This document shows positions 33,536-62,706 of a stretch of 64,000 bases of DNA, one piece after another. Numbering within the stretch: the stretch's first letter is position 1; every line of letters begins with the position of its first letter. The notes below the pieces were generated by a model that saw only the letters and a program-made list of their open reading frames with translations, did not search any database and was not told the DNA's origin. Where the stretch lies: IMG/VR virus record IMGVR_UViG_3300007754_000852. One strand, written 5' to 3'. The translations under genes were made by a program, and so were the position numbers. Origin of the DNA: a virus (lineage: Duplodnaviria > Caudoviricetes).

Positions 33536-33823
33536 CTACTTCTCTACTGACCGATCTATAACTGTCATGTTTCTTGCAACGTTTAAAATAGAGTCTCTGC
33601 ATAAATCAATATCCGTAATTACCTGTCTTATCTCAACAGAATCAAAAAAAATCGGCTTCTCTGCCACTTTACTCATAGTCTTATATCTTTCATCAAGCTC
33701 ATCAAGAGAAGATTCAATTGCATCTTGTAATTCTAAAAGAATCATTCCATGCTTATAGTTGTAGCCAATAGAGATGACTAATAAAAATAGAAGACATACA
33801 TTAGTAACTATTAAATAGATCAC
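33536..33823 (-). CDS. Small membrane-anchored coiled-coil protein
   Basis: 95 aa, hydrophobic N-terminus LIVTNVCLLFLLVISIGY followed by a heptad-like LLELQDAIESSLDELDERY. Confidence 0.5.
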   Translation of the reverse strand: MIYLIVTNVCLLFLLVISIGYNYKHGMILLELQDAIESSLDELDERYKTMSKVAEKPIFFDSVEIRQVITDIDLCRDSILNVARNMTVIDRSVEK

Positions 33824-34998
33824 ACAGTCTCCACGTGATCATGATAAAATTTATTATACTTTCCAATAACAGCCAAAAGTGAAAATTCTGATTGTATTTG
33901 TTTTGATAGGTCTATTGCCCACTGTTTTGGTAAGCTGTACTTGTCTCTTAGCTTCTTTATCTTCTTTTTGAAGTCACCTTCTGAAGGATCTGCCCACTTC
34001 ATTCCAGCCATAAAGATTCTATTATCAATTCTATTTTTTGGAATTTCAATAAGATCGTATTTTATTGGAATAAACTTTCCCATACCAAGAAAGTCAAGAT
34101 GTCCAGACCAGTTTGTTGCGATAACCGGTAGACCTGCTGCTGCCGCCTCTAGAAGAGGGAGGCCAAATCCCTCTCCCCTTGTCAGACTAATTAGCCCTTT
34201 TACATCTGCTCTTTTATACAGGCCGGCTATCTCGTCTGGTGATAAATTTCCGTGAATCACATGAATTCGTGGAAACCTATCTTTTCTAACCTCTGATAAC
34301 AGCTTTTTAATTGTATTTTTTGTTAGCTGTCTGTCTATCGCTGTTCCTCTTCCATGATTAACTTTTATTATTAGCCCTACATCAGGATCATCTTTGAATG
34401 TCTCACAGAACCACTTGATCGTGAAGAATATATTTTTTCTATCATTCCACGGATCGTCACCAGTAAATTGACCAATTAATAAAAAATTAAAACTAGTATC
34501 AACGCTATCTAGCTTAGTTTCTTTAATGCTGTCATCATCAATTGATTCAATGTAGCTTTCAGGAATTACATGAATTGGTGTCGAAACAGATCCTGTATTT
34601 TCAATTGTCTTCTTTATGTGGCTTGTTGGAATAATTACATGATCCATTAGCTCCATTCTTTCAAGCCATGCCTTGTTACAGACATCAGTTTCAACAACTG
34701 CTGACACCCCTATGTTTATCTTGGCCTTTGAAGGATCCCACTCATCTGGTAGCTGTACTTGAACTGAGATATCATATTTTTCACCATCTACTTCGGCATT
34801 TGTCCTTTTCATTATTCTTTCTACTAGGCCGTTTTCAAAGTCTGGATTTATCATCCAGCTTGTATTTCCCCACTGAAGAACTTGAACAGTTACATCAAAG
34901 TCGTCTCTAGACTCTAGCCATTTAAATATTTGTCTTGAGTGAACGCCGTATCCGCTTATTGATAAAACAGGCGCCCGTAAAAGTACTTTCTTTTTCAA
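33820..34998 (-). CDS. GT-B (GT4-like) glycosyltransferase
   Basis: TTG start. SISGYGVHSR, RKNI, TRGEGFGLPLLEAAAAGLPVIATNWSGHLDF. Confidence 0.88.
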   Translation of the reverse strand: MKKKVLLRAPVLSISGYGVHSRQIFKWLESRDDFDVTVQVLQWGNTSWMINPDFENGLVERIMKRTNAEVDGEKYDISVQVQLPDEWDPSKAKINIGVSAVVETDVCNKAWLERMELMDHVIIPTSHIKKTIENTGSVSTPIHVIPESYIESIDDDSIKETKLDSVDTSFNFLLIGQFTGDDPWNDRKNIFFTIKWFCETFKDDPDVGLIIKVNHGRGTAIDRQLTKNTIKKLLSEVRKDRFPRIHVIHGNLSPDEIAGLYKRADVKGLISLTRGEGFGLPLLEAAAAGLPVIATNWSGHLDFLGMGKFIPIKYDLIEIPKNRIDNRIFMAGMKWADPSEGDFKKKIKKLRDKYSLPKQWAIDLSKQIQSEFSLLAVIGKYNKFYHDHVETV

Positions 34999-35013
34999 CT
35001 TAAAAACCTCTAG

Positions 35014-36261
35014 TTAGAATGACATGCATTCCCATCTTTTATAGTTTTTCTTCCAGCTTTCACTGGTTTCAATCATTGTATCATGCCAATCATCGATTGT
35101 CTTCTGGTGATCAAACTGACTAAGTGCGTATTTTCTCACCTTGTCTTTTAGCTTGACTCTATCATCATCATCTAGCTCGTATATCTTCATTATTCCATCT
35201 GCCACAGTCTGACATGATGTATAGTCTTCAAAAATATATGGTACTTGTTGTGAACCTACAAGCGTTTGATTCTCAACATCAAGAGCAACGCCATTGTGAG
35301 ATCCATCTCTATGATCTACGACCTGTCTAGTGAGACCGCCCGTCTTTACAGCAATCATCGGCGTTCCTGCTTGCATGGCTTCTAATGTTGGTAAACCGAA
35401 GCCTTCAGCGTAACTAATGTTTAGACAAAAGTCAGAAATATTATATAAAACATTCATTTTTTCAAATTCAAGCCTCTCTCGAGAGTAGAATACAGTATCT
35501 TGAATTCCTAACATCTCAGCTGTTGCAAACAGGTTTGGTCCTTCCTGATCTAGAGGTTCTGTGTGCATGATAAGGGTTGCATTCTTATGACCGTGCTTTT
35601 TCTCTAAGTCATCAAGAAAGTGCTTCCAAGACAATAATACGTCATTTGGTCTCTTTCTTTTTGCATTTCTATTTACCCAGATACCAATAAAATGATCCTT
35701 TCTTTCAGACCCTAAAATTGACCCTCTAAACTCTCTAAGTTTACCCTTATCAAGGGGATAAAACATCTCAGGCGGTACTGAATGGGGTATGAAGTTTGTC
35801 TTTTCTGGAAACCTCTCTGCAACCATCTCGTATGTCATGTGAGAGTGACAATTAATTAGATCAATCGACTTATATATCGACTCATTAAATTGTGGCCAGG
35901 GGTGATTATCCCAGACATGCCACCAGACTATGGGGCATATTTGGTGGATCTCATCTTCCATCTCAAACAACCAGATAAAAAATCTTGGATCAGTAAAGAT
36001 AAAAAGAATGTCAGGTTTCTCTGTTGCAAGAGTCAATCTAATGAGTGCGGGGTCGCCGAATCCGTCAATTGGTTTTATGATAAAGTCATCATTAACAACA
36101 ACGGTATTATAGTCTGTGTGTTTTAGAGCTGCACCAAACTGCCTAAATGACCACTCACCTTTCTTTATAAGCCCATTTATTAAATGTCTTGTCTGTGTTC
36201 CAACACCTGATGTTGAAAGAGCATGATCAGATAACACAAGTACTTTCTTCTTACGCGACAT
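35014..36261 (-). CDS. GT-B (GT4-like) glycosyltransferase
   Basis: STSGVGTQ, VNRNAKRKR, SYAEGFGLPTLEAMQAGTPMI. Confidence 0.88.
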   Translation of the reverse strand: MSRKKKVLVLSDHALSTSGVGTQTRHLINGLIKKGEWSFRQFGAALKHTDYNTVVVNDDFIIKPIDGFGDPALIRLTLATEKPDILFIFTDPRFFIWLFEMEDEIHQICPIVWWHVWDNHPWPQFNESIYKSIDLINCHSHMTYEMVAERFPEKTNFIPHSVPPEMFYPLDKGKLREFRGSILGSERKDHFIGIWVNRNAKRKRPNDVLLSWKHFLDDLEKKHGHKNATLIMHTEPLDQEGPNLFATAEMLGIQDTVFYSRERLEFEKMNVLYNISDFCLNISYAEGFGLPTLEAMQAGTPMIAVKTGGLTRQVVDHRDGSHNGVALDVENQTLVGSQQVPYIFEDYTSCQTVADGIMKIYELDDDDRVKLKDKVRKYALSQFDHQKTIDDWHDTMIETSESWKKNYKRWECMSF

Positions 36262-36304: not shown

Positions 36305-37141
36305 TCACGTGCAATATTTTGTATCTTTAAACGGACAATAATTGCATGAATTTCTATTTTTAAGAAACATGCCTCTCTTTACAGAAGAGATCATATTATT
36401 CATGATCTTGAGAGATTTTTCTAGTGCCTTAGGTCCCACAGATACTGTTACCAGCTCACAGATACGTCCTGGTTTACCCCCGCGCTTTAATAGTATAAAA
36501 CCACATCTGATGTCCTTCAGTGGCACAGAATGCTTTCTAGACCAAAAGTGCTTGTATAAAATTAGCTGTGACGTCATGAGTATGTCCTGTTTCTTCTGTC
36601 GTCTCCAGCCATACGACCCTGCCGTCTTCCAGTCAAGAATCCAGTAGTTATGACCTTCACCTCTCTTCTTTGGAACCTTTAAAATAGCATCGATAAAGCC
36701 TTTAAACTTTACAGGTTTACCGTCGATATCTTCATATAGCTGTTCCTCTGCCTTTACGATCTCCCAGTCAGGAAATGTCTCATCTAAAAATGAAGGAACA
36801 TCATTCCACATATTTGATGCCCACTCACACCAGGTGTCAACACCCACGTTTGAGCTCTTCTTATACCAGTCAGGCTGTCTAGCTACCCACTCAGGATCAT
36901 CAAATCCATTTTTATCCCACGCTTCTCTAATTCCGCTCAAGATCTGAGACTTATCAACTGTCTTTGTCTCAAGAAGAGACTCACATCCTTCGTGAACAGC
37001 TGTTCCAAAGTCAAGAAAAGGTGAAGGTTCAAACATGTCAACCTTGTCAATCTTAGCCAGCTTATGTCTCCAGGAGCACTCTGCCCACTCTTTTATCTCT
37101 GAAAATGATATATGATTCTTACCGGTTGGAAAATTACTCAT
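36305..37141 (-). CDS. PD-(D/E)XK exonuclease, Cas4/AddB-like with 1+3 cysteines
   Basis: ISFSEIKEWAECSW, FGTAVHE, AEEQL...FKGFIDAI...ILDWKT, QLILY, C-terminal CNYCPFKDTKYC. Confidence 0.8.
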   Translation of the reverse strand: MSNFPTGKNHISFSEIKEWAECSWRHKLAKIDKVDMFEPSPFLDFGTAVHEGCESLLETKTVDKSQILSGIREAWDKNGFDDPEWVARQPDWYKKSSNVGVDTWCEWASNMWNDVPSFLDETFPDWEIVKAEEQLYEDIDGKPVKFKGFIDAILKVPKKRGEGHNYWILDWKTAGSYGWRRQKKQDILMTSQLILYKHFWSRKHSVPLKDIRCGFILLKRGGKPGRICELVTVSVGPKALEKSLKIMNNMISSVKRGMFLKNRNSCNYCPFKDTKYCT

Positions 37142-38032: not shown

Positions 38033-38326
38033 CTATTTCCAGTCCTTTGTATTCATATTCTTATCATCAATAAAGAGATCATACACAGGCTTTCCAAACT
38101 TTAAATCATGATATCTTGCATTCCATCTTGAAAGCTGTAATACAGTAACATCTGTCCAGTCAATTCCAGTTCCTGATCCTCTTGCTGTCCAGTATACCAC
38201 AGTATGACCATCATCAAATAACTTATTTGCCTTTTCAATGTTATCACGTATCGGCTCTGCCATTGAGTAATCTCGACTTTCAGGAGTTGTGCATATTGTT
38301 TCATCAATATCAATATAGACTATCAT
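38033..38326 (-). CDS. Small HAD-family phosphatase (97 aa)
   Basis: Likely start is ATG 38326 (ATGA overlap with the neuB stop). YIDIDETIC, YWTARG, GKP...FIDDK. Confidence 0.8.
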   Translation of the reverse strand: MIVYIDIDETICTTPESRDYSMAEPIRDNIEKANKLFDDGHTVVYWTARGSGTGIDWTDVTVLQLSRWNARYHDLKFGKPVYDLFIDDKNMNTKDWK

Positions 38327-39159
38327 TTTCTTAATGTCTTCATCTTTTTTAACTCTGACTCTGACGGACATCTTGGGCCCATAGTTCCCATTGCTACTTC
38401 GATATCTCTTATTCCCTTTACTAGCTTTATCAAACCTGAGGGTTCGACAGATGAACTTTGATCTGACCCCCACATATTTCTATTTAATGTAACGTGCCTT
38501 TCGATCCACGTTGCGCCTAAGCCTATTGTTGCATGAGTTGTAACTAGACCATATTCATGACCACTATACCCAATTTCACGTCTGAGATATGTTTCTTTTA
38601 ACCGCTTAATGTATAACAAGTTTAATTCTTCAACTGGGCATGGATATGTTGAATTTGTATGAAATATTAGGTTTGGATCACATGCAACAACAGCGTTTTC
38701 AATTTCTTTTTCTGTGCTCATTCCCGTAGAGATCATTAAATAGTCACAGTTATCTCTTGCATATTTGCAGAGATCTAAGTCAGTTATTAGTGCTGAGGGT
38801 ATTTTCATAGTTACACCCTTTGACGTATTATACTTTTTCATAAAGTCAACTGAGTCATTATCCCACACACTTGCAAACCATTGAATCCTTTTTTGTTCAC
38901 AGTATTTGTCAATCTCATCGTATTCATCTTCACTAAACTCTATCTTCCACTTATAGTCAAGATAAGTCATGTCTCCCCAAGGTGTAGATCTCATTACACC
39001 CTTTTGTTTATCTGGAACACAAACATCAGGATTTCTTTTCTGAAATTTGACAAAATCACACCCAGCAACAGATGATAAGTCTATTAGTTTTTTTGCAAGA
39101 TCTATATCACCATTATGATTAATTCCTATCTCTGCAATTATGTTCACTTTATTTATCAT
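38323..39159 (-). CDS. neuB: NeuB-family nonulosonate synthase, short form without the C-terminal AFP/SAF domain (278 aa)
   Basis: Likely start is ATG 39159 after AGGTGA. IAEIGINHNGD, VKFQKR, HTNSTYP, GYSGHE, WIERHVT. Confidence 0.92.
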   Translation of the reverse strand: MINKVNIIAEIGINHNGDIDLAKKLIDLSSVAGCDFVKFQKRNPDVCVPDKQKGVMRSTPWGDMTYLDYKWKIEFSEDEYDEIDKYCEQKRIQWFASVWDNDSVDFMKKYNTSKGVTMKIPSALITDLDLCKYARDNCDYLMISTGMSTEKEIENAVVACDPNLIFHTNSTYPCPVEELNLLYIKRLKETYLRREIGYSGHEYGLVTTHATIGLGATWIERHVTLNRNMWGSDQSSSVEPSGLIKLVKGIRDIEVAMGTMGPRCPSESELKKMKTLRK

Positions 39160-39164
39160 TTCAC

Positions 39165-39851
39165 CTACCACGCTGTCCAGCCGCCGTCTACTGGAATAAC
39201 AGAACCATTGATATACTTTCCTTCCGGAGTACATAGCAATCTAACCAAGCCGCAAACATCACGTGCTGATGCCATTCTCGACATCGGTGTGTGCTCACAA
39301 TATCTTTCTCTAAACTCTGGATCCATGTACTCATTGTCAACTCCTCCAGGACAAACTGCATTTGCTGTAACCCTGGGGGAGAAGTGCGTTGCGATATATC
39401 TTGTCAATCCGATAACAGCATGTTTTGATGTAACGTATCCAACATGTTTTACTGTAGCTGGATATATTGACTTTTTTGGAGACCTTATTCCGTATAGTGA
39501 GCTAAAATTAACGATGCTAATTTCACCAGAATTTTCCTTAATAAACTCCCTGCACACAGAAAACAATGATGATACATTCACGTTGTGAAATTCATCAAGG
39601 TCAGACTTTTTAATCTCTAAAAAATCAGTGACAGATTCAGAACTTTTATCCATATGGTGATTTAACCCAAAAAGATTGATTAGTGATGTAGCGTGGTTTT
39701 TTCTGAAAAAGAGTCTAACTTGATCTTCATCTGACAGGTCTACACCTGTTGATAAATCAGCTTCAATTACATTGAAATCACACTCTCTCATATAGTCACA
39801 GACAACACTTCCTATTAGTCCAGACGATCCTGTTATTATTACTGATTGCAT
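39165..39851 (-). CDS. SDR oxidoreductase (PtmA/ElaC-like)
   Basis: ITGSSGLIG, VNFSSLYG, YVTSK (YxxxK), ANAVCPGGV, YINGSVIPVDGGWTAW. Confidence 0.85.
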   Translation of the reverse strand: MQSVIITGSSGLIGSVVCDYMRECDFNVIEADLSTGVDLSDEDQVRLFFRKNHATSLINLFGLNHHMDKSSESVTDFLEIKKSDLDEFHNVNVSSLFSVCREFIKENSGEISIVNFSSLYGIRSPKKSIYPATVKHVGYVTSKHAVIGLTRYIATHFSPRVTANAVCPGGVDNEYMDPEFRERYCEHTPMSRMASARDVCGLVRLLCTPEGKYINGSVIPVDGGWTAW

Positions 39852-40681
39852 ATTTTAACGATTAGACTTGATATAAATTTTTCACTATTATTTTTTGATG
39901 TATCATTTTTCTTAATTTTATTAAAAAAATCAATTATCTCACATTTAAACGATTCATTTCTTGGTATTCTTCTTTGATTAAAATCATATGTCACTGTTTC
40001 ACCATGATGATATGTTAGCTTTAAATGACACACAGACTCCTCTTTATCCATTTTGGCAAAATATGACACAGGCACACCAGAACAGTTAAGCTGTGCAAAA
40101 AATGAGCTATCTCCGGGTATATCAAGATTATACTCTTTCTCAAATGACATTAAATCAAATGAACCAAATAGCTGATATATGAGATCTAAACCATGACAAA
40201 GTGTTAGGGAAACACCGTCTATTGCTGGATATGTCTCATGATAATCTTCCCATGAATGCCAGTTCGGAAGAAAGTCTGAATGATACCATTCGATGTGAGC
40301 TACGTTAGATGTATTGATCTTCTTAAATAATTCATGAAATCTAAGATTAAAGCCTACCTGAAAAACCTTATTTGAAATATTATCTAGGGCAGCTATCTCA
40401 TCCTCTCTTATAATTGCAGGTTTTTCAACAAAAATATGCTTATCTAAAAATTCTCTTATGTAGCTTTCATGAGTATTGCTTGGTGTGCAAATTATGACAA
40501 CGTCTGGATTCCATGTTTTTGCCTCACTGATGTCGGAAAAGTAAGTTGCAAATTTAAAATCACTCTCTCTTTTTTGCCTTAAGAATGCTATTTTCATAGT
40601 GTGAGGAAGAGAAGTTACTATGTTCGTTGCATGCCGAATTGCTGTAGACCCGTGCCCTATTATTAATACCTTTTCTTCCAC
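39839..40681 (-). CDS. Gfo/Idh/MocA oxidoreductase (PtmF/ElaA-like)
   Basis: IIGHGS, IICTPSNTH, FVEKP, VGFNLRF, WEDY, CHGLD. Confidence 0.8.
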   Translation of the reverse strand: MEEKVLIIGHGSTAIRHATNIVTSLPHTMKIAFLRQKRESDFKFATYFSDISEAKTWNPDVVIICTPSNTHESYIREFLDKHIFVEKPAIIREDEIAALDNISNKVFQVGFNLRFHELFKKINTSNVAHIEWYHSDFLPNWHSWEDYHETYPAIDGVSLTLCHGLDLIYQLFGSFDLMSFEKEYNLDIPGDSSFFAQLNCSGVPVSYFAKMDKEESVCHLKLTYHHGETVTYDFNQRRIPRNESFKCEIIDFFNKIKKNDTSKNNSEKFISSLIVKICNQ

Positions 40682-40682
40682 A

Positions 40683-41396
40683 CTATTTTCTCATTTTATC
40701 AAGATATGATATTAAAGAATCTTTTTCTATTGATCCTGTCGTCTCAATCTTTGACAACTGATCAAGTGTATCTACGTCAATTGTCATAGATGTCTCAAAT
40801 CCAAGCACCCTATCTCCAAACGTCTTTCCAGATGATATCGTTTTTCGTTTAACAATATCAATATATCCATTACCAATAAATGTTTTTGGAAATATCTGTC
40901 TTGGTAGATTTGTATAGTTTTTCATATTGTCAAAACTATCAAAAAACCCCCTGCAATACTTACCATCGACCCTTAAAAGCTTATATGGTGTCATTTGCAC
41001 CTCAGAGATTGTTCTTAGGCCCGTTGCGTCACCTTTGTTTTTGTTGAAAAAATCAATTACATCACACATTAATTTAGGATCTCTTATGGGTGTTGTTGGT
41101 CTAATAAGTGCAATTGATTCAGAATCAACATTATCAAAAAAGTGATTTAAAAATTCAAAGTCTGTTGATGTGTCAGATGCATACTCTGCAGGTCTTTTAA
41201 ATGGAATCTCTGCTCCATACATCTTTGAAATATCAATTATTTCATCATCGTCAGATGACACAATAACCTTGTCAATTTTTTCACATAGCTTACATGCAAT
41301 AATTGAATATGCAATAAGAGGATGACCACATACATCTCGTATGTTCTTCCTTGGTATTCCCTTACTTCCTCCTCTTGCAGGTATGAGAGCTATCAT
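40683..41396 (-). CDS. neuA: CMP-nonulosonate synthetase (acylneuraminate cytidylyltransferase)
   Basis: IALIPARGGSKGIPRKNI, VSSDD, FKRPAEYASD, LIRPTTPIR, IDVDT. Confidence 0.92.
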   Translation of the reverse strand: MIALIPARGGSKGIPRKNIRDVCGHPLIAYSIIACKLCEKIDKVIVSSDDDEIIDISKMYGAEIPFKRPAEYASDTSTDFEFLNHFFDNVDSESIALIRPTTPIRDPKLMCDVIDFFNKNKGDATGLRTISEVQMTPYKLLRVDGKYCRGFFDSFDNMKNYTNLPRQIFPKTFIGNGYIDIVKRKTISSGKTFGDRVLGFETSMTIDVDTLDQLSKIETTGSIEKDSLISYLDKMRK

Positions 41397-42133
41397 TAAA
41401 CGACTATCCTTGGTAAATCATATATGCTACTATCTGTGTTTACAAGAGCAATTTCTACATTCTTGCTAAGCTCTTTAACACGGACAGCATGAGGATAATA
41501 ATCATTGATCGTCCTTCTCTTTGTTGTTACAAGCCTATCTGACTGTGGATGGAAGTATTTGTGTGTTGCACCTCCGTCAAATCCAGACAGATATATCTTA
41601 GATGCTCCAAAAAACATAGCAAGCTCAATGCACCATATTCCTGTACTGTACCACTTGCTGCCGATAATCATTTCTGCATCAAATGTTGTCTCTGGTGTTG
41701 GACTATTTGCAACATAGATCTTGTTTGGCCTGTTGAGATCATTCCATTCACAAATTAATGCATCAAGGTATTCACTAACAGGAATGTCACCCACCCAAAC
41801 ATCTCTGTGATGAAGCGGATTTAATGAAAACCCCCGTTCATGACATAGTCTGTCTTTATTAGAATTATGAGCACTGACCTCTGTTATCATCTGTGAAAAA
41901 ATTATAGAGCTTTCTTGTAAGTTGACATTATTTTTCTTATACCACATAAGAGACAAAGGATCATGCAGCACGTGATAGTCAAATCGTGTATCGATGTTTC
42001 TATAGTTACATCCTAGAACTATCTTATCAGATATAAATGAATTTTTTAAATTTACAGATGAAGGACCTCCCCCAACTATGACTATTTGTTTGTCTAGCAG
42101 CGAACCCTCTAAGTCTCTAATGTCATTAAGCAT
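41396..42133 (-). CDS. Maf/DUF115- or GT29/GT42-fold putative sialyltransferase-like protein
   Basis: IVIVGGGPS, IVLGCN, STG...IELAMFFGASKIYLSGFDG; next to neuA. Confidence 0.6.
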   Translation of the reverse strand: MLNDIRDLEGSLLDKQIVIVGGGPSSVNLKNSFISDKIVLGCNYRNIDTRFDYHVLHDPLSLMWYKKNNVNLQESSIIFSQMITEVSAHNSNKDRLCHERGFSLNPLHHRDVWVGDIPVSEYLDALICEWNDLNRPNKIYVANSPTPETTFDAEMIIGSKWYSTGIWCIELAMFFGASKIYLSGFDGGATHKYFHPQSDRLVTTKRRTINDYYPHAVRVKELSKNVEIALVNTDSSIYDLPRIVV

Positions 42134-48970: not shown

Positions 48971-48972
48971 TT

Positions 48973-54429: not shown

Positions 54430-55937
54430 TTTTCTACTTTGTGAATTTCACCCGTATTCTTGTCTACTATCATGCCTTTTTTATATTTTGTATATGAGCT
54501 ATGATTTAACTCTTGCCAAGCTTTATCTCTTATTTCTTCAAGATCAGACGGTGGAATTAAAGTATTTATCATGTTTGCCTTTTGCCAATGCATTCTATCA
54601 GGATTGTAATCTACAGGTAGATTATCATTTCTTATTGCATAATCAAATAAAGGTGTTCCAGGAAGAGGCATTACAAGAAAAAAGCTAGATGCATCAAGAC
54701 CGTCATCCATACACTTTTTTGCAAAGTTGATAGTGTTTATTGCTTCATCTCTAGTTTCATCTGGATATCCTATCATAAAGTTACCTGCAACTCTAATTCC
54801 ATTTTTCTTACACGTATTTATTAAAGCAGGAATGTTTGATCTGTCGGGATTCCACTTGTTTGATGCATACTTTAATAAAATTCTATTACTTATTGACTCA
54901 AAAGGAAGCGCTATGTCTCTAAATCCTGCTGCAGCTAGCGTTTCAATTACCTCGTCGTCTGGTTCACCATTTTTAAGTAAGTGAATTACATTTATTCCAT
55001 TAACGTCAAGTATTTCAACATCAAGATCTCTTATCTTATTAATAAGCCTTATTGCCCTTTTCTTTTTTCCAAAAATAGAATCATCTTCTATGAAGATTTG
55101 CCTAACACCAAGAGTCTTTAATAACTCTATCTCAGCCAAGACTCTCTCATCAGATTTTATTCTAAATGACCCAATGTCTCCTGATATCGAGCCCTTTAGC
55201 TCACCTGATATGTGACAGTAGGTGCACCTAAATGGACAGCCTCGTGATGTCATCATAGATGCATATTTTAAATCTTCATCAGGTAAAAAATGTCCGCCGT
55301 GGGGACGCCTAATCTTCCAGTATCTATTATTTGGAAGAAGGTGCCACGCTGCCATAGGTAGATCATCAAGATTCTGTATGACATTGATGTCGAGCTTACT
55401 ATGACAAACTATTTCGTCCATTAGATAAGAAACACCTGGTATGTGACTAAACTCTTTTTTACCAGACTCAAAACGTCTAACAACTTTAACAAACGCATCT
55501 TCGGCCTCAGACGTACAAATTACATCAACTCCATTCCTAAAAAACCTATGCTGTCTGTGTCTTGCATTTACGCCGCCTGCAACTATTAATTTTTCTGGAA
55601 ATGCTTCTTTAATTAATCTTGAAACTGACAGAACCATTGTCTCTTGATGGGTAAAAATTGATGTTAATCCAATTACGTCAGCATCATAAACTTCTTCAAG
55701 AATTCTATCATTAGACACACCGGTTCTTTTCATGCCTGTCGGTAGATCAGAAGATCTATAAAAAACTGTATCAAGATCGTCTTTACTGTTTCCTACACAC
55801 GCATCAAAAATGCTAACATCGATTCCTGCTGACAAGAGAGCTCCTCCAAGTGCAGGATATGCTAGAGACCCATTAGGCTTACACATCATCTCAGGCCACG
55901 TTTGTTCTGGTGGGTACAGTAAAACTACCTTAGACAT
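54426..55937 (-). CDS. Cobalamin-binding radical SAM enzyme (class B)
   Basis: N-terminal B12-binding VIGLTSIF...VAGGVNA; SRGCPFRCTYC (CxxxCxxC); FIEDD, FMIGYPDET. Confidence 0.9.
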   Translation of the reverse strand: MSKVVLLYPPEQTWPEMMCKPNGSLAYPALGGALLSAGIDVSIFDACVGNSKDDLDTVFYRSSDLPTGMKRTGVSNDRILEEVYDADVIGLTSIFTHQETMVLSVSRLIKEAFPEKLIVAGGVNARHRQHRFFRNGVDVICTSEAEDAFVKVVRRFESGKKEFSHIPGVSYLMDEIVCHSKLDINVIQNLDDLPMAAWHLLPNNRYWKIRRPHGGHFLPDEDLKYASMMTSRGCPFRCTYCHISGELKGSISGDIGSFRIKSDERVLAEIELLKTLGVRQIFIEDDSIFGKKKRAIRLINKIRDLDVEILDVNGINVIHLLKNGEPDDEVIETLAAAGFRDIALPFESISNRILLKYASNKWNPDRSNIPALINTCKKNGIRVAGNFMIGYPDETRDEAINTINFAKKCMDDGLDASSFFLVMPLPGTPLFDYAIRNDNLPVDYNPDRMHWQKANMINTLIPPSDLEEIRDKAWQELNHSSYTKYKKGMIVDKNTGEIHKVEK

Positions 55938-56727
55938 AATTTAATATCCACTCTTCAACTCTATTTCTCCATGTAACTGCAGCAAAGTCTTTATGAAAAT
56001 CTCTAGATAGAGATCTTCCCAAATGCGTAAAGATGGGTTCTCCGTTTATCTGATGCTCTTCGCCTCTCATTCCTGGAACTGACATGAACTTTGACCTACA
56101 GTCTTTTGATCTAATTAATGGAAGTGAAACTCCTGTATATCCTGAATTTTTAATCTTTAAGGGTAGTTCCCATCCCACATCTAAGTCAATAGTTTCACCT
56201 GGTGATCTTCCAAAAATTTCAGAGTTTGTATCATCAATCATCAATCTTCTAGTCTTAGCTGGTAAAAATGATACATTACACGACTTTAAGATGTTGACAT
56301 CAAATAGACAAGCTATTGCGTTAGGAAAGTTAAGATATTTTTCACCATCGTATTCAGACCCTACTATTACACACTTTCCACTAATAAAGCTTAAAAGATT
56401 CTTATCCCAATCTCTAGATAAAAATGCAACATCAGAGTCAACTATCATTCCGCATCTTTCGCTCATATAATCTAAGATAACATCTAGACAGATTCCATGA
56501 CCCATGCTTGATGCAGAGTGACTATTAATTGCATTTAATACAACTATTTCAGAATCTGTCTTGACGCTTAAGATTTCATTTACATCGACACTTTGATCAT
56601 TTATTGCAAGTATGAATTCCACTCTTTTTTGATCGCTTACAGTCATATTTGACGACCATATAAGGTGCTTAGCATAATGCTCAGAATTAATTCCGCATGG
56701 AATTCCTATTTGAATTTTTGATGACAT
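55930..56727 (-). CDS. GT-A (GT2-like) glycosyltransferase
   Basis: MIVDSDVAF DxD motif, SMGHG.CLD, LDVGWE, HLGRS. Confidence 0.6.
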   Translation of the reverse strand: MSSKIQIGIPCGINSEHYAKHLIWSSNMTVSDQKRVEFILAINDQSVDVNEILSVKTDSEIVVLNAINSHSASSMGHGICLDVILDYMSERCGMIVDSDVAFLSRDWDKNLLSFISGKCVIVGSEYDGEKYLNFPNAIACLFDVNILKSCNVSFLPAKTRRLMIDDTNSEIFGRSPGETIDLDVGWELPLKIKNSGYTGVSLPLIRSKDCRSKFMSVPGMRGEEHQINGEPIFTHLGRSLSRDFHKDFAAVTWRNRVEEWILNYV

Positions 56728-56732: not shown

Positions 56733-57830
56733 CTAAAAACTATTTACTGCTTCCACTATTGTTATTCTATCTTCATCTGTTAGCCACCACCCAACAGGAA
56801 TATTCATCATTTTTGAACAAAATTCATCAGTTCCAGGAAGATCATCTCTTTCAAATTTTTTATATACAGAATATCTATCATTTCTTACATGAACAACATC
56901 AGTTGCTACACCTTTTCTCATCATATGACTTTTAAATTCATCTCTATCATCGACAAGAAGGCTATAGATCCAGCATGCAGATTCAGAATCTTTTGACCTT
57001 TTAAGCTTTTTGACTCGTGAGTTATTAATATTTTCATCAAAAAATGCACTATTATTCTGATGAGCTTTAACAAGCTGTCTAATTGTTTTCATTTGTTCTA
57101 GGCCGATTAGAGCATTTAAATTATTCATATGAAATTTATACCCCCACTCAGTGACATCTTGCTCCCATCGAGACTTTCCTGTCTTGGCTGTGTACTTTCT
57201 ATCGAGGCCAAACCATCTTAGGCTTTTTATTCTTTGATCATCATCATAGCTTTTTGAACAAATTGCTCCTCCGTCAGCAGTTGTTAAGTGCTTTATTGCC
57301 TGGAATGAAAAACACACAAAGTCACTATGGCTTCCAATTGGCTTACCCTTATATGTCGCACCAAGAGCATGTGCAGCATCCTCAATCACCTTTATATCAA
57401 AATCTCTTACAGCTTTGTTAATTTCATCTATTTCAAACGGCTGACCTGCCCAGTGAACAGCAGAGATTGCCTTTGTCCTTGGTGTTATCTTTCTTTTAAC
57501 ATCGTATGGGTCAATATTTCCAGTTTCAGGATCAATGTCAGCCCAGACAAGCTTTGCACCAAATACAGATGCAGGTTCATTTGTAGCCATGCATGTCATC
57601 GGTGTAACAATTACCTCATCTCCAGGGCCTATGTCACAAAGCCTAAACGCCAGTGTTAGCGCTGATGTGCAGCTATTTACAAGAGAACAGTTTTCATTAT
57701 TGACATAATCTGAAAATTCTTTTTCAAATCTATCTGAGTATTCTCCCTCAGTTACCATTCCTCCTTCAAAAAGCTTATCTATTAATGGGCCTAACGTCCC
57801 AGGGTTGTGAACCTTAAAAAGGTTTATCAT
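56733..57830 (-). CDS. DegT/DnrJ/EryC1/StrS sugar aminotransferase
   Basis: VNSCTSAL, AVHWAG, IEDAAHA, SFQAIKHLTT with the catalytic Lys retained. Confidence 0.9.
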   Translation of the reverse strand: MINLFKVHNPGTLGPLIDKLFEGGMVTEGEYSDRFEKEFSDYVNNENCSLVNSCTSALTLAFRLCDIGPGDEVIVTPMTCMATNEPASVFGAKLVWADIDPETGNIDPYDVKRKITPRTKAISAVHWAGQPFEIDEINKAVRDFDIKVIEDAAHALGATYKGKPIGSHSDFVCFSFQAIKHLTTADGGAICSKSYDDDQRIKSLRWFGLDRKYTAKTGKSRWEQDVTEWGYKFHMNNLNALIGLEQMKTIRQLVKAHQNNSAFFDENINNSRVKKLKRSKDSESACWIYSLLVDDRDEFKSHMMRKGVATDVVHVRNDRYSVYKKFERDDLPGTDEFCSKMMNIPVGWWLTDEDRITIVEAVNSF

Positions 57831-57832
57831 CG

Positions 57833-58051
57833 CTATCTCCTATTTTTTTGATTAGAGGTTTTTCCCCATGAAATATAATTACACAGCCTTTCAAAGAAAT
57901 AATACATGATAAATCCACTAATGTTCATATAAAGAGCATTTGTCAAAGCCTTTTCTGATATTCCAGACGATAAAACAATAAAGCTATTTAAAATTGCAAT
58001 AATTCTCCATGCTACTGTCTTAAGAAGGCTTCTTGCCTTTGTCTCTTCCAC
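57833..58051 (-). CDS. DUF2061-like small membrane protein
   Basis: ETKARSLLKTVAWR...YYFFERL..YISWG pattern. Confidence 0.7.
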   Translation of the reverse strand: MEETKARSLLKTVAWRIIAILNSFIVLSSGISEKALTNALYMNISGFIMYYFFERLCNYISWGKTSNQKNRR

Positions 58052-58053
58052 AC

Positions 58054-59016
58054 TTATGATCCAAACTTTTCCTCAAAGATCTTAATATTATAATATGTCT
58101 TGTTATTAAAGTCATATGTTGACAAATCTATATTCTTTAGAATCTCTCTGACTGATTCTCCTGGAGAAAATTGTGGAGCAAAATCTAGCTGATCTTTAGT
58201 TTTGCTGTTTGTTACCTTGTAGTTTCTACATTCTGGAATGTTTTTAATTTCAATACCAACATTAATTCCATGATCAGATAGCTCACTTTTAATCTCATCA
58301 GCAAGACGACCCATTGTGTAGTTGTCATATGACACATTAAATACGCCTGTTATCTCTTGACTTGCCTCTATTGCCCTAATATATGCAGTCGCTATATCCC
58401 TAACGTCTGTTAACGGTCGCCAGACGCTAGGATTATTTACAACTATCTTACCCTGTGTTAGAGCAAATTTTGTCATTGTGTTTACAACGAGATCATATCT
58501 CATTCTTGGTGAATATCCTCCAACTGTTCCCTTCCTTAGTGCTATTGGACGAAATGATTCATCTTCAAAGCTCATAACAGCATTTTCACCAATCATTTTT
58601 GAAATTCCGTAGGGAAACTTTGGAGAAACGGGCGACTCCTCGTTCATTAGTTTATCATTTGTATATCCGTATATGCTACATGAGCTTGCATATATAAACC
58701 TCTTTACACCTGCCTCCTTTGAAATAAACGCTAGATACGTTGGTGATGATGCATTTTCAACAAAGTTCATTGATGGATTAAAATTTGCCATGGGATCATT
58801 TGATACACCAGCCATAAAAATAACAACATCAAAATCTGACAGATCGCTGGGTGTCAGTGTTCTGATGTCTGAGTTTATTACCTTTGCCTCGCTGGGAAGA
58901 TTGTTTCCAAACCATAGTAAGTCAACAACAGTTACATCATACTGTCTCTCAATTAACCTTGGAATTAAGACTGATCCTACATAGCCGGCGCCGCCAGCAA
59001 TTAAAATCTTTTTCAT
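58054..59016 (-). CDS. NAD-dependent epimerase/dehydratase (extended SDR)
   Basis: AGGAGYVGS, YASSCSIYG, YGISK, SPRMRYDLVVN. Confidence 0.87.
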   Translation of the reverse strand: MKKILIAGGAGYVGSVLIPRLIERQYDVTVVDLLWFGNNLPSEAKVINSDIRTLTPSDLSDFDVVIFMAGVSNDPMANFNPSMNFVENASSPTYLAFISKEAGVKRFIYASSCSIYGYTNDKLMNEESPVSPKFPYGISKMIGENAVMSFEDESFRPIALRKGTVGGYSPRMRYDLVVNTMTKFALTQGKIVVNNPSVWRPLTDVRDIATAYIRAIEASQEITGVFNVSYDNYTMGRLADEIKSELSDHGINVGIEIKNIPECRNYKVTNSKTKDQLDFAPQFSPGESVREILKNIDLSTYDFNNKTYYNIKIFEEKFGS

Positions 59017-59594
59017 ATGTTTCTCTCAAAATAAAACTTTGGATCTTTATCATAATCAGAAAATGATTTCGCTGTTATATCTTTTTCTGATAGTATTAAA
59101 TCATTAACATCTAAACCCCAGTCAACATTAAGGCTGGCATCTAGCGGATTTATTCCGCTTTCTCCATCCTGATTATACACTGCTGTGCACTTATAATGAA
59201 GAACTGTGTTATCTTCAAGAGAGACTATTCCATGAGCAAATCCATGTGGAACCCATAGCTCCTTTTTGTTTTCTGATGTTAGCATAAATGATTCATGTAT
59301 ACCGTATGTTGGACTACCTTTTCTTATATCAACTATCACGTCCATGATTGCACCATTGGCAACTTTTACAAATTTTCCCATTGGACCATCCCATTGATAA
59401 TGTAGACCTCTTATGACGCCTTTTTTTGAAATGGAAAAGTTATCTTGAACAAATGTCTCATAAAACTCAACATCCTTAAACGTATCTTCATTGTATGATT
59501 CATAAAAACACCCTCTGTGATCATGAAAAATCTTTGGTGTAAACACAAAAACATCATTAAAATTTTTACTTTTTTCCTTTGTTATCTTTTTCAC
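59013..59594 (-). CDS. rmlC: dTDP-4-dehydrorhamnose 3,5-epimerase family cupin
   Basis: DHRGCFYESY, VQDNFSISKKGVIRGLHYQ, LWVPHGFAHG, ILSEKD. Confidence 0.9.
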   Translation of the reverse strand: MKKITKEKSKNFNDVFVFTPKIFHDHRGCFYESYNEDTFKDVEFYETFVQDNFSISKKGVIRGLHYQWDGPMGKFVKVANGAIMDVIVDIRKGSPTYGIHESFMLTSENKKELWVPHGFAHGIVSLEDNTVLHYKCTAVYNQDGESGINPLDASLNVDWGLDVNDLILSEKDITAKSFSDYDKDPKFYFERNI

Positions 59595-60061
59595 TCAAGC
59601 TCCATCTTCATTTCAATTCTTTTAATTTTTTTATTGCCACGGATCACGGGATATGTTTTGTTATTCGTTCTCTTAAAGCCAACCTTTTCGTAAAGAGATA
59701 TCGCCCTATTGTTAAATTCCAAAACATATAGGATAAACGTTCTAAATCCAAATCTTTCTAGCATAAGCTTCATAAATTCAGGATATGCCTTTTTTGCTAT
59801 TCCCTTTCCCCTGTGATCTTTGTGTATATCACATCCAATAAATACACTATTCTCATCTATATTCCACCTTGACGTTCTAAAGTATCCTACATCTTCATCA
59901 GCGTAGCTTAAAATATAGAATTTTGGACTATTAGCCTTAAACCACTCACAACATTGATCAACAGTAAATCTTGTATCGTCATCAAGAAAATCAGCGCATT
60001 CATTTCTTATTCCAATAAAGAATTCTAAGTCATTCTCGCTCATTTTTCTAAATGTTATCAT
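59591..60061 (-). CDS. GNAT N-acetyltransferase
   Basis: IHKDHRGKGIA acetyl-CoA motif A, NNRAISLYEKVGF. Confidence 0.85.
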   Translation of the reverse strand: MITFRKMSENDLEFFIGIRNECADFLDDDTRFTVDQCCEWFKANSPKFYILSYADEDVGYFRTSRWNIDENSVFIGCDIHKDHRGKGIAKKAYPEFMKLMLERFGFRTFILYVLEFNNRAISLYEKVGFKRTNNKTYPVIRGNKKIKRIEMKMELE

Positions 60062-60781
60062 CTATTGATCTTCTATCTTAGAAAGAAACCCTCTAGCTCT
60101 TACAAGATTTATAGTTGATATCTGTCTCATCTCTGCCCAGTCTCTATCATTAACTGATACAGAGTTTATGTTATACCTGTAACATACCTTGTCAATATAT
60201 TTTCTTTTACCTGATACATTTAAAAGAGGTAACATTAGTGCCTGATCATATCCTCTCTTAAACCATTCTGAGCTTTCGTCTTTAAAATTTCTATCAGATA
60301 TTTTTTTTAATAGGCTGCATTTAAATGTTCTAAGGTGAGAGCTACACCATGGCCAAAAATATGGATCCACGTTATCTGGCATACTACTAGATATATTACT
60401 TCCATTTATATCCCACTCATGAGCTGTCCAAACAACATCGCACCCATCACTATGCTCATCATGAATAATAGATGATGTATCATCATTACATAAAAAATCG
60501 TCACCGTCAATAGTTGCAACTATCACATCGCTGCTTATATTCTGAAACAGCCTAGCAGTTTCAACTATGTTTCTTAGGGCGTATTTTTTAACCGAATTTT
60601 TTCTACACGTAAATCTCTGATCATGTGTGCAAATTTCTACCATCTTTTTCCACGTATTATCTGTTGACATGTCATCAACCATGATACAATGCCACCTATC
60701 GTCAGACTGTGATGACAGTGATGATGCAAGCCTGTCAAGATTTTTTTCTGCATTGAAGCACGGTACAACAAAAATTATCAT
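60062..60781 (-). CDS. GT2-family glycosyltransferase
   Basis: VVPCFNA, MVDDMSTDNT, TIDGDD. Confidence 0.87.
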   Translation of the reverse strand: MIIFVVPCFNAEKNLDRLASSLSSQSDDRWHCIMVDDMSTDNTWKKMVEICTHDQRFTCRKNSVKKYALRNIVETARLFQNISSDVIVATIDGDDFLCNDDTSSIIHDEHSDGCDVVWTAHEWDINGSNISSSMPDNVDPYFWPWCSSHLRTFKCSLLKKISDRNFKDESSEWFKRGYDQALMLPLLNVSGKRKYIDKVCYRYNINSVSVNDRDWAEMRQISTINLVRARGFLSKIEDQ

Positions 60782-62706
60782 TTTTTATCAGCCCACTTAT
60801 TTATAATTTTTGGTGAACCCTGTTTCAATGTCATATGAGGTGTCTTCATTGAAAAATCAACTTTCCTATGAAATATCCAGCCTCCCATTTCATCACTTAG
60901 TCGACTTGCAAGATTTTTGATATCATCATCAGAGACGTCAGACCAACACTTATCAAAAAACATATTATTTTCAGGTGTGTCATTCTGACTGATGTTATAT
61001 AGACTTTGCCAGTGTTTCGACCAATAATTTTTATATGTCCTTATCTTTCTTTCAAGATCATACCAGGAGTAGTGATGAACGCCTGGCAGGTTGTTTGTAA
61101 TTCCTTGAAACCATTCAGCGTATTTCTGAAGAGAGTTGTCATCTGTAAAAATCTGATTTCTTAAGCTCTCTATCTCAGGAGTGTAGAAATTAGCAAATTC
61201 AACTCTTTCAAATGTATCACTTCTAATATAGTCACATCCATCAGTTCCAGGAAGCGAGTACATGTCACCATTTTCATCAAATTTTCTTAATTGCTTTGGT
61301 ACACCGTGAGTTATGTGCGGCTTATTTCTGCTAAACCTCCACTTCCACGGGTTTATATCAACCCTTACCTTGTTTGGTCCTCCCCAGTACTCAATGACCG
61401 GTAGTGCTAGCAGGTCAATATTTTTAGGAAGAATCTTTGAAAGATTCTTAACCTTCTCGTAATCATCCTCATGAACTATCTCATCTGAGTCTTGTTGCCA
61501 GCAAAACTCTCCAGTACATAGAACTCTAGCTAGGGCTTTTTGCAGCCCATCAAATACAGCAAATCTTGGATGATCCCAATCCCTCACATGCTGGTGTGCC
61601 AATAGCCTTTCGTGGGACTCTGTCAGCTTCTGTAGCCTCTCCCATGTACCGTCCTTGGAACCACCATCAACAACAACAACCTGGTCACAGAAGTCAAGCA
61701 TTGACAATATGCTTTCCTCAAATGGATATCTCTGATCTATACAATTTAATGTTGTTGTATATCCGCTTATTGTCGGAACGTAGTTTATTATCTTCTCTAT
61801 CTCTGTCCAAAATCTTCCTCTTGCAGACATTAGATAGTTTTCAACTAGACCAATATTATCTGTCTTAAACCACTCCTCGTGAACGTGTTGAACATTTTCA
61901 TTTGTTATTATCTGACAACCTAGCAGCTTTGCCTCTATCACGAGACGTGGACATGTGTCACCACCCTTTGGCAGGAATACTAGACACTTTGACACAGACA
62001 GCTTCTTTAAGAGGTCACTGTGAGAAAGGTTCCACACTGTCTCAAAATCATAATTATTTTTTTTACAAAAGGCCTCAGCATCCTGTGTTCCTTTTATCCA
62101 AGATGTTGACCCTACAACAATGTACTTTTCTCTTTTTTCATCCTTTGATTCATCTCGAAGGCGCCTTACAGTATCAAAAAATGATTTCTGAAAAACTGAT
62201 GACAGAACGGTATTTTTTATATTTGATAAAAATGGGAATGCCTTGTGGTATATCATCATTTGCTTCTTGGACATCCACCATAGAGACTTTGCCCCATAAT
62301 AAAATGCTGACACCATCTTTCCATGCATCTGATTATGACAGTCACATTCCTTATTTTCAGCCTGCATGTGTTTTTCAATTGATCTATATTTACAATACTT
62401 GTAATCGAATTCAACTATTGAATAGTTCAAATTTGCAACAACTGTAGGAATAAGATTCCAGTTAATTGATGAAAAATTTCCAAATATCCAGTGCTTTCTT
62501 AATCCTTGTGACAGTAGCTCAGGTGTAACCTTATTAGCATGAAGTCTAAAAACCTTAAGAGGTGAAGCGTCAATTATCGCATCTGTTGTCAGCTCAGCAC
62601 CACCAACATGATCCTTTGAAAACATGTCACCGACAAATACGACATCACAGTCATCTGGTATCTGTGGTGCGGGCTCAGGAACCTCAAACACACTTTGATT
62701 AAACAT
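60778..62706 (-). CDS. Two-domain glycosyltransferase (GT-B-like N-terminus + GT2 C-terminus)
   Basis: N-half: KGT..A, DTCPRLVIEAKLLGC. C-half: QVVVVDGGSKDGT, WQQDSDE, HYSW...KI. Confidence 0.75.
   Translation of the reverse strand: MFNQSVFEVPEPAPQIPDDCDVVFVGDMFSKDHVGGAELTTDAIIDASPLKVFRLHANKVTPELLSQGLRKHWIFGNFSSINWNLIPTVVANLNYSIVEFDYKYCKYRSIEKHMQAENKECDCHNQMHGKMVSAFYYGAKSLWWMSKKQMMIYHKAFPFLSNIKNTVLSSVFQKSFFDTVRRLRDESKDEKREKYIVVGSTSWIKGTQDAEAFCKKNNYDFETVWNLSHSDLLKKLSVSKCLVFLPKGGDTCPRLVIEAKLLGCQIITNENVQHVHEEWFKTDNIGLVENYLMSARGRFWTEIEKIINYVPTISGYTTTLNCIDQRYPFEESILSMLDFCDQVVVVDGGSKDGTWERLQKLTESHERLLAHQHVRDWDHPRFAVFDGLQKALARVLCTGEFCWQQDSDEIVHEDDYEKVKNLSKILPKNIDLLALPVIEYWGGPNKVRVDINPWKWRFSRNKPHITHGVPKQLRKFDENGDMYSLPGTDGCDYIRSDTFERVEFANFYTPEIESLRNQIFTDDNSLQKYAEWFQGITNNLPGVHHYSWYDLERKIRTYKNYWSKHWQSLYNISQNDTPENNMFFDKCWSDVSDDDIKNLASRLSDEMGGWIFHRKVDFSMKTPHMTLKQGSPKIINKWADKK

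Follow-up and report, generated by a model that had tools for sequence, protein, structure and literature searches.

A precedent for virion glycosylation by phages is found in the mycobacteriophages Che8, Corndog, and Myrna (Freeman et al. 2023, as quoted in PMC12619734), and four core glycosyltransferase (GT) orthogroups have been reported for the possibly related 'moraphages' (PMC12619734). Among giant viruses, capsid glycans are known from chloroviruses and fibril glycans from Mimivirus (PMC9614988, PMC4691112). Large GT-rich islands are also known in marine myoviruses (PMC7029224, PMC7824862, PMC9123017). Described here is an island of GT and sugar genes in the IMG/VR virus record IMGVR_UViG_3300007754_000852 (Duplodnaviria; Caudoviricetes), of which a stretch of 64,000 nucleotides (nt), hereafter the window, was analysed; the island occupies positions 33820-62706. 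The mycobacteriophage system is a smaller affair, consisting of a few GT and methyltransferase genes and no large nucleotide-sugar set, with the C-termini of capsid and tail-tube proteins as acceptors and actinobacteria as hosts.

The island is tentatively explained as a cytoplasmic glycan assembly line, the product of which is most likely complex, O-linked, and carried by distal tail, baseplate, or fibre proteins of the phage itself. Counted in favour of this reading are the solubility of the enzymes, the absence of lipid-carrier genes, a GT bracket at the two ends of the island, the deep conservation of its GT4 genes, adjacency to baseplate genes, an [ST]GS motif in tail proteins, a DNA-glycosylation module that relatives encode elsewhere, the collinear recurrence of the island in two other contigs, and the precedents in mycobacteriophages and giant viruses. 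The gene content, the solubility, the bracketed architecture in the family, the absence of lipid-carrier machinery, and the separate DNA-glycosylation module of the relatives are established. New here are the fixed GT bracket, the nuclease-GT4-GT4 triad with its deep conservation, a DNA-GT module set apart from the island, and the motif in the tail proteins.

Every long open reading frame (ORF) in the window is encoded on the minus strand, and 32 such ORFs, tightly packed or overlapping with few gaps, fill the island. The original prediction, made from the letters of the window, had the co-orientation and the packing right and put the number of genes at about 33. Domain calls were made with Pfam and PHROGs, equivalog calls with NCBIfam, and structural leads were taken from the ESM Atlas. 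Pfam recognises five GT4 genes (33820, 35014, 48068, 51571, and 53521) and three GT2 domains, namely those of 52494 and 60062 and one that forms the C-terminal half of a 642-amino-acid (aa) protein encoded at 60778. With these eight solid domains and about three GT-like leads, the predicted figure of ~11 is fair. Residues ~20-310 of the 642-aa protein match GT-B-type viral clusters in the Atlas structure search, a lead, and the 310-aa product of 42126 resembles Glyphos_transf/polysialyltransferase-type GT-B clusters in the Atlas, likewise a lead. The product of 41396 is MptE/Maf-like, with a Pfam match (PF01973, E 0.0014, 18.9 bits) below the cut-off of 34.6 bits, an Atlas feature score of 0.94 to viral MptE-like clusters, and a template-modelling (TM) score of 0.62-0.65 to Maf-type models. 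PDB sequence searches with the 642-aa and Maf-like proteins gave no significant match.

In the proposed mechanism, phage enzymes would convert host GDP-mannose, UDP- and dTDP-sugars, and precursors derived from phosphoenolpyruvate into activated sugars, predicted to be CMP-nonulosonate, GDP-6-deoxy or 3,6-dideoxy hexoses, and an N-acetylated amino-6-deoxyhexose. Two conserved GT4 enzymes encoded beside the baseplate genes would lay a conserved inner linkage on a conserved acceptor. This core would be extended by the variable GT4 and GT2 enzymes, the 642-aa two-domain GT, and the Maf-like and GT-B-like putative nonulosonate transferases, and the glycan would be tailored by methyl-, carbamoyl-, deacetylase-like, and B12 radical-SAM (S-adenosylmethionine) enzymes. 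As relatives swap the island's central genes, its glycan would serve as a variable particle 'serotype'.

A hydropathy scan found no multi-pass membrane protein among the 32 island products, and the 72-aa DUF2061 protein is, as had been predicted, the lone membrane-like one; a 95-aa anchored protein is encoded just outside. In the window (Pfam) and in the contigs of 16 relatives, searches found no initiating transferase (Bac_transf PF02397, WecA-type PF00953) and no Wzx (PF01943), Wzy_C (PF04932), or ABC-2 permease (PF01061). The relatives' contigs total ~1.7 Mb, including a 254-kb contig at an estimated 75% completeness, and all positive controls were detected. The predicted lack of these components is thereby borne out, Gtr systems not having been searched for, and the flippase check that the prediction had called for, run on the relatives' contigs, found no Wzx family.

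From the lack of export genes it had also been concluded that the acceptor is cytoplasmic. The soluble system agrees with this, but the conclusion overreaches, as the host could supply the carrier and export enzymes. Non-initiating O-antigen GTs are normally soluble or peripheral, and a host initiating transferase, flippase, and ligase could therefore carry the product to the cell surface. Such remodelling of the host envelope is the main rival explanation, which we consider somewhat unlikely: phage GTs and sugar-nucleotide enzymes would build an oligosaccharide on host undecaprenyl-phosphate or lipid A-core, with the host providing the initiating transferase, the export by flippase or ABC exporter, and the ligase, and the altered surface could block superinfection or the re-adsorption of released virions. 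The island unites GTs with dedicated nucleotide-sugar genes, as O-antigen and capsule loci do, so that its content resembles such a locus minus the membrane components, and with soluble GTs being the norm there, the missing membrane proteins are compatible with this explanation. Its cassette-like variability also recalls surface-antigen loci. Flippases and polymerases are, however, often selective for the repeat unit, none of the 16 relatives' contigs holds an initiating transferase, flippase, polymerase/ligase, or ABC-2 permease, and the explanation has no experimental backing in a phage of this kind. It is the published reading of the lipopolysaccharide-like or 'host recognition' clusters of cyano- and pelagimyophages (PMC7029224, PMC7824862, PMC9123017).

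The island is a family trait, with fixed GT ends and a variable middle. The ~30 loci that reach far enough upstream share one order: a dehydrogenase-like or GMD gene, the nuclease gene, GT4 'B', GT4 'A', five small genes, and the wedge gene, and at the far end a 631-661-aa GT2-containing ORF followed by a small GT2 gene is found in 5/5 large relatives. Homologues of the 642-aa GT are 53-75% identical in L084, L085, L096, L098, and L099. The span between the two brackets measures 14-30 kb, and its content differs among relatives. Such fixed ends around a changing middle are typically seen where the inner linkage is conserved and the outer glycan varies. In L096 and L098 the island is collinear with that of the window from the fibre-like gene through the FCL-like gene (53-93% protein identity), and this recurrence in two other contigs argues that the window's island type is maintained by selection. 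The bracket can be rearranged, since the gene order differs in L097 (positions 1-17401; IMG/VR 3300030419_007281), a more distant relative that starts with the GT4 pair, continues with a match of 286 residues to the 642-aa GT (42% identity) and with variable sugar genes, and ends with the dehydrogenase-like gene and two baseplate-module genes.

The two core GT4 genes are deeply conserved. GT4 'A' is syntenic in 36 relatives. For GT4 'B', identity among relatives is 61-70%, higher than the 50-60% of their wedge proteins, and its alignment has a mean column identity of 73%. At E<=1e-10, 5585 database clusters match GT4 'B', which indicates that the family is abundant. Its AlphaFold model (predicted local distance difference test, pLDDT, 86) shows a canonical retaining GT4 fold, and the top Foldseek matches are MshA, chlorovirus NY-2A B736L (PDB 3oy2), BshA, glycogen synthase, and WaaG; no T4 GT is present in its 29 PDB sequence matches or its top 50 Foldseek matches. 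The modelled fold leaves the acceptor unspecified.

Homologues of GT4 'B' occur in Flavobacterium phage immuto, Microcystis phage Mel-JY01, phage LR756508, and Rhodothermus phage RM378. As these homologues span phages of hosts from different phyla, a phage-intrinsic, host-independent acceptor is favoured, which counts against a host-envelope target; immuto and Mel-JY01 have, in addition, retained the nuclease and another GT beside it. In immuto (L086, 5801-9720) and Mel-JY01 (L087, 4932-9859) a PD-(D/E)XK nuclease gene lies one gene upstream of two GT4-like genes, the first of which is annotated as two pieces in Mel-JY01, and genes for a GT2, an aminotransferase, and a methyltransferase come after the GT pair. 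The triad could also point to a mixed function, in which it would serve one target (DNA or another conserved component) and the variable cassette another (the virion or the host surface), so that the 29 kb would not be one pathway. The nuclease gene stays near the GT4 pair, adjacent in the family and one gene apart in immuto and Mel-JY01, over very deep divergence and even among replication genes; GT4 'A' scores above the Pfam cut-off for 'GT4 in conflict systems', and the island's interior changes among relatives independently of the two ends. The position of the pair in immuto and Mel-JY01, directly before the other sugar genes, nevertheless looks as if it primes the same pathway, and the model of GT4 'B' resembles GT4s of small molecules, lipids, and proteins, a T4 DNA GT being absent from the top 50 Foldseek matches. 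A division of the island between two targets is judged quite unlikely.

The candidate acceptors are encoded on the baseplate side of the island. Six tail or baseplate proteins of 948, 423, 1107, 325, 1208, and 511 aa (ORFs 3523, 6389, 18705, 22025, 23017, and 26657) are rich in [ST]GS, usually flanked by hydrophobic residues, with 49 occurrences observed against 8.6 expected (z 4.5-7.1 each). No tripeptides other than TGS and SGS combine a high count with enrichment in these proteins, and the island enzymes, the gp6-like wedge protein, and four other large proteins show none or close to the expected number. The enrichment is ~6-fold in homologues across the family (e.g., 595 against 98 and 399 against 61 expected) and extends to the tail-spike proteins of immuto and to Mel-JY01 (47 observed against 7.5 expected), while T4 structural proteins are not enriched (7 observed against 10.4 expected). 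The 511-aa protein is modelled by AlphaFold (pLDDT 81) as a chain of beta-sandwiches, its best PDB match being a carbohydrate-binding module, and the 1208-aa protein carries a Laminin_G_3 domain.

A separate machinery for DNA glycosylation is found in relatives of the window phage. In relative G001 the module runs dnaE, a MilA-like cytosine hydroxymethylase, Glf (UDP-galactopyranose mutase), a 350-aa protein, a P-loop kinase, a nucleoside-diphosphate-sugar epimerase, and a cupin. It is located at L088 1468-3611 and L091 65-2993, ~197-202 kb along the 254-kb contig, with DHH, MT-A70 methylase, and dCMP deaminase genes following. The thymidylate synthase (TS)-fold enzyme of G001 matches the CMP 5-hydroxymethylase MilA (PDB 5jnh, E 6e-43) far better than ThyA and has Asp at the cytosine-selecting position. 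Searched against PDB, the profile of the 350-aa family has T4 DNA beta-glucosyltransferase as its sole match (E 6e-5). The dnaE-linked module is kept in at least 21 IMG/VR contigs, and in G001 its hydroxymethylase and 350-aa GT are >100 kb from the island. These domain assignments suggest galactofuranosyl- or hexosyl-hydroxymethylcytosine DNA in the relatives. Kinship of the dnaE-linked GT family with GT4 'B' was rejected (hhalign probability 1.3%), as was dependence of the GT4 pair on the hydroxymethylase, the ThyA of immuto being ordinary (284 bits) and Mel-JY01 having no TS-family gene.

DNA glycosylation thus probably has its own machinery, since the relatives carry a separate hydroxymethylase and T4 beta-GT-like module at dnaE. 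The search for DNA-base-modifying enzymes recommended by the original prediction accordingly succeeded in the relatives, and no homologue of the hydroxymethylase or of the dnaE-linked GT was detected in the window, so the DNA reading is weakened. That reading, in which the island would build a complex glycan on hydroxymethylated cytosine of the phage DNA, draws on the hydroxymethylase of the family, on the nuclease beside the GT4 pair, and on known phage DNA glycans that include Kdo (3-deoxy-D-manno-oct-2-ulosonic acid) and heptose and whose clusters hold cytidylyltransferase and HAD-like enzymes (bioRxiv 10.1101/2023.12.21.572611). The dedicated module (T4 beta-GT homologue, kinase, Glf, epimerase) nonetheless sits at a distant locus in the relatives, the GT4 pair is kept in immuto and in Mel-JY01 alongside an ordinary ThyA and no TS-family gene, respectively, and ~11 GT domains are far too many for the mono- to tri-saccharides so far known from DNA. 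Hypermodification of DNA by the island is highly improbable.

Several observations weigh against a glycan on tail proteins. In immuto and Mel-JY01 the nuclease-GT4-GT4 clusters lie far from the baseplate and structural genes; the predicted argument from island position to virion proteins holds for the window-phage family, where the adjacency is kept, and does not carry over to these two phages. LR756508 has a GT4 'B' homologue and its [ST]GS enrichment is weak (6 observed against 2.5 expected). The AlphaFold model of the 511-aa protein places the [ST]GS sites in or at the ends of beta-strands, and many sites are positionally conserved, so they may be structural; some may resemble a LamG/ConA-like strand signature. 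The lineages sharing the motif are related, which reduces its co-occurrence with the GT4 genes to roughly one evolutionary observation. The [ST]GS signal is real, yet it may reflect structure and is at most a candidate sequon. O-antigen and capsule loci also hold soluble GTs, apart from the initiating enzyme, and known phage virion glycosylation uses few GTs. Scans for sigma-70 promoters and terminators gave no excess over shuffled expectation, so that late co-transcription with the tail genes receives no support. Finally, which proteins accept the glycan, in what order its sugars are transferred, and what it does are inferences from the genes.

A more specific form of the tail-glycan reading can be formulated, which is unlikely to hold in all its parts. 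A strain-variable, O-antigen-like glycan, assembled wholly in the cytoplasm, would coat the distal tail and baseplate proteins, with the GT4 pair priming Ser/Thr in hydrophobic-[ST]-G-S-hydrophobic strands, and a recombination-swappable cassette, marked by a 62-nt tract shared by two gmd genes, would set the 'phage serotype'; immuto and Mel-JY01 would share the priming step. The gmd paralogues, though 50% identical as proteins, share this 62-nt stretch exactly (44595-44656 = 50842-50903), and it brackets a 6.2-kb cassette of carbamoyltransferase, GT4, DUF2334, ColD-like, and FCL-like genes. The tract looks like a trace of recent gene conversion or a plausible handle for recombination.

The sugar genes of the island fall into modules (Table 1), and most of the predicted pathways are recognisable in them. 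Only the two GMD copies and the RmlC-like enzyme pass NCBIfam equivalog cut-offs; the other named sugar and tailoring enzymes are recognised by Pfam and fall below equivalog level. The nonulosonate module comprises genes for the GT-B-like protein (42126), the MptE/Maf-like protein (41396), a CMP-transferase (40683), a Gfo/Idh/MocA protein (39839), a short-chain dehydrogenase/reductase (SDR; 39165), and NeuB (38323), and also holds a mini-HAD phosphatase within 38033-38473. The predicted nonulosonate pathway is supported by the NeuB-type synthase (PF03102, 205 bits) and the CMP-transferase (PF02348, 67 bits), both under the equivalog cut-offs. No UDP-GlcNAc dehydratase of PseB/LegB type and no NeuC was recognised in the island by NCBIfam, and the island's DegT and GNAT genes lie ~15-20 kb from the synthase gene and score below the PseC and PseH cut-offs. 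Within 38033-39234, NeuB stops short of the SAF domain that such synthases usually have, and its gene overlaps a small ORF, which, read directly in translation from an internal Met, encodes a HAD-like phosphatase of ~97 aa with the motifs DIDET, WTARG, and K...DD. The missing SAF domain and the HAD-like ORF suggest a route through a phosphorylated nonulosonate intermediate.

The amino-6-deoxyhexose block contains genes for a GNAT protein (59591), an RmlC-like 3,5-epimerase (59013; rmlC 201.5 bits against a cut-off of 155.75), an SDR epimerase/reductase (58054), DUF2061 (57833), and a DegT aminotransferase (56733) that is PseC/LegC-like and below the NCBIfam cut-off. It is collinear in L096 and L098 at 72-93% identity, and its GNAT, DegT, RmlC-like, and SDR genes agree with the N-acetylated amino-sugar pathway of the prediction. 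Between and including the gmd paralogues lie genes for GMD (50595), a carbamoyltransferase (48973), a GT4 (48068), a DUF2334 deacetylase-like protein (47373), an RfbH/ColD-like DegT protein (46224) closest to RfbH-type 3-dehydrases, an FCL-like reductase (45322), and the second GMD (44339). The co-occurrence of GMD, the FCL-like reductase, and the RfbH-like DegT protein fits a colitose or fucose pathway as predicted, the latter two at sub-equivalog scores. Methyl, carbamoyl, deacetyl, and radical-SAM tailoring was likewise recovered by Pfam, in two SAM-dependent methyltransferases, the NodU-like carbamoyltransferase, DUF2334, and the B12 radical-SAM enzyme (54426), whose nearest NCBIfam models are B12 radical-SAM methyltransferases, below cut-off; the 265-aa product encoded beside it has no match in Pfam or NCBIfam.

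Two assignments fared less well. The uronic-acid pathway is weak, because the dehydrogenase-like product that would represent it consists of NAD-binding and central domains and lacks the C-terminal UDP-binding domain of UDP-glucose dehydrogenases, its NCBIfam alignment spanning profile positions 66-295 of 413. The gene is unlikely to be a simple pseudogene, since the same short form recurs in many relatives: tblastn finds matches in 18 of the loci, those listed spanning ~285-330 residues with a few shorter fragments. The neighbouring gene at 36305, which had been included in the sugar island, turned out to encode the PD-(D/E)XK nuclease and is no sugar gene.

Table 1. Coordinates of the island modules and flanking features in the window.
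Feature	Position	Strand	Basis
Core GT4 'A'	33820..34998	-	Pfam GT4 and GT4-conflict, 29.3 bits against 26-bit cut-off
Core GT4 'B'	35014..36261	-	Pfam GT4; best-conserved gene of the region
PD-(D/E)XK nuclease	36305..37141	-	Pfam E 1e-19; syntenic in 29 relatives
Truncated UDP-sugar dehydrogenase-like, 288 aa	37164..38030	-	Pfam PF03721 and PF00984
Nonulosonate module	38033..43058	-	Pfam, NCBIfam, Atlas
Two SAM-dependent methyltransferases	43046..44391	-	Pfam Methyltransf_23/11/12
Cassette between two gmd paralogues	44339..51569	-	Pfam
GT4 (53521), GT2 (52494), GT4 (51571)	51571..54429	-	Pfam; homologues in L082, L085, L096, L099
B12-binding radical-SAM enzyme (54426) and 265-aa protein (55930)	54426..56727	-	Pfam Radical_SAM and B12-binding
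Amino-6-deoxyhexose block	56733..60061	-	Pfam, NCBIfam
GT2, second conserved far-end gene	60062..60781	-	Pfam PF00535 E 9e-14
642-aa two-domain GT, far-end marker	60778..62706	-	Pfam GT2, residues 340-430
Upstream flank, fibre-like structural gene	62765..64000	-	Open at window end
Downstream flank, baseplate module	28198..33823	-	Pfam, PHROGs; order kept in ~30 relatives
Distal baseplate/fibre proteins	3523..28192	-	Six enriched in [ST]GS, candidate acceptors

The flanks agree with the predicted position of the island between a fibre-like gene and baseplate genes. The upstream product has no Pfam or PHROG match and is weakly similar by tblastn (E 3e-6) to annotated tail and tail-fibre genes of Colwellia phage 9A and Roseobacter phages; homologues lie upstream of the island in relatives G003, L096, and L098. 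Downstream, the baseplate module encodes the 95-aa anchored protein (33536), proteins of 247, 119, 445, 140, and 160 aa, and the wedge protein (28198), which is Baseplate_J/gp6-like in Pfam and a baseplate-wedge protein in PHROGs. The 95-aa protein (33536-33823) stands between GT4 'A' and the rest of the module, has a strongly hydrophobic N-terminus (Kyte-Doolittle 2.78), is conserved in ~35 relatives, and is the sole clearly membrane-anchored product of the neighbourhood. Most tail proteins of the window have no PHROG or Pfam match, the wedge protein being the only one with a PHROG match.

The wedge protein and 222 IMG/VR relatives, on contigs of up to 254 kb, confirm that the window derives from a phage. 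Megablast of the window against cultured-phage records gave no match, and the nearest cultured relatives of the wedge protein, at ~31-32% identity, are immuto, Mel-JY01, and the 484-kb phage LR756508. Since the 254-kb contig is estimated to be 75% complete, genomes of the family are roughly 340 kb. The window phage is a marine jumbo myovirus of an uncultured, abundant family and is not T4-like. Labels of the metagenome-assembled genomes (MAGs) into which contigs of the family (L134-L139) were binned give no consistent signal of a host: they read Halobacteriovorax, Methylococcaceae TMED69, Lysobacterales, Burkholderiaceae, and Gammaproteobacteria, and mis-binning is likely. The Methylococcaceae TMED69 MAG holds a 305.8-kb contig that is possibly a near-complete phage genome.

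If its product is on the virion, the island would be by far the most complex phage-encoded protein glycosylation system known, in a phage family that is very abundant in the ocean. A variable particle serotype, if true, would bear on adsorption, on losses to grazing and aggregation, and on the evasion of phage-binding host receptors. If the product instead goes to the host envelope, the island would represent a large seroconversion system of a lytic phage that hijacks host export. In either case the locus-defining GT bracket, the two cultured relatives with the GT4 pair, the candidate acceptor motif, and the separate T4-like DNA module offer experimental handles.

The system of the mycobacteriophages is one of the closest known. 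There, too, soluble phage GTs reportedly glycosylate structural proteins of the phage itself in the cytoplasm, without a lipid carrier, and the glycan changes how the particle is recognised (PMC12619734). The island differs from it in scale, with ~11 GT domains and ~15 sugar-nucleotide and tailoring enzymes, and its putative acceptors are distal tail proteins. Like the giant viruses, the window phage encodes its own nucleotide-sugar pathways (6-deoxy and amino sugars) together with GTs, which would act in the cytoplasm without endoplasmic reticulum, Golgi, or lipid carrier, in clusters that vary between lineages; GT4 'B' has chlorovirus B736L (PDB 3oy2) as one of its best structural matches. 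The giant viruses are, however, eukaryotic viruses of another realm with no relation in gene order, whereas the island is GT-bracketed and lies in the structural region of a tailed phage.

The nonulosonate genes recall the flagellin glycosylation islands of Campylobacter, Helicobacter, and Aeromonas, which combine Maf with pseudaminic or legionaminic acid genes: in the phage, genes for the NeuB-type synthase, the CMP-transferase, Gfo/Idh/MocA and SDR oxidoreductases, and a candidate MptE/Maf-like protein adjoin one another. In those bacteria the Maf system adds O-linked glycans to a secreted structural protein while it is still in the cytoplasm. In contrast to these islands, the phage locus has no flagellin and no recognised PseB/LegB or NeuC, its NeuB lacks SAF and is accompanied by a mini-HAD, and its Maf-like protein is below the Pfam cut-off. 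T4-type and newly described DNA-glycan systems (bioRxiv 10.1101/2023.12.21.572611) also combine GTs with sugar-nucleotide enzymes, and the window family has a hydroxymethylase and a T4 beta-GT homologue; unlike in T4-type DNA glycosylation, this module is found at dnaE far from the island in the relatives, and GT4 'B' has no detected similarity to T4 GTs.

In genomic setting, the island parallels the host recognition cluster of cyano- and pelagimyophages (PMC7029224, PMC7824862), a large, hypervariable, and non-syntenic island of the structural region in which fibre genes stand among many GT and sugar-nucleotide genes and close relatives differ in content. Those phages are T4-like and their cluster is read as modifying the host O-antigen (PMC7029224; PMC7824862), whereas the wedge protein of the window family is ~32% identical to its nearest cultured relatives, and the T4-like (Straboviridae/Kyanoviridae) backbone with the island between VrlC and gp14 is not that of the window family. 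What sets the window family apart from the cyano- and pelagimyophages is a fixed GT bracket around the variable genes and a GT4 pair that it has in common with immuto and Mel-JY01.

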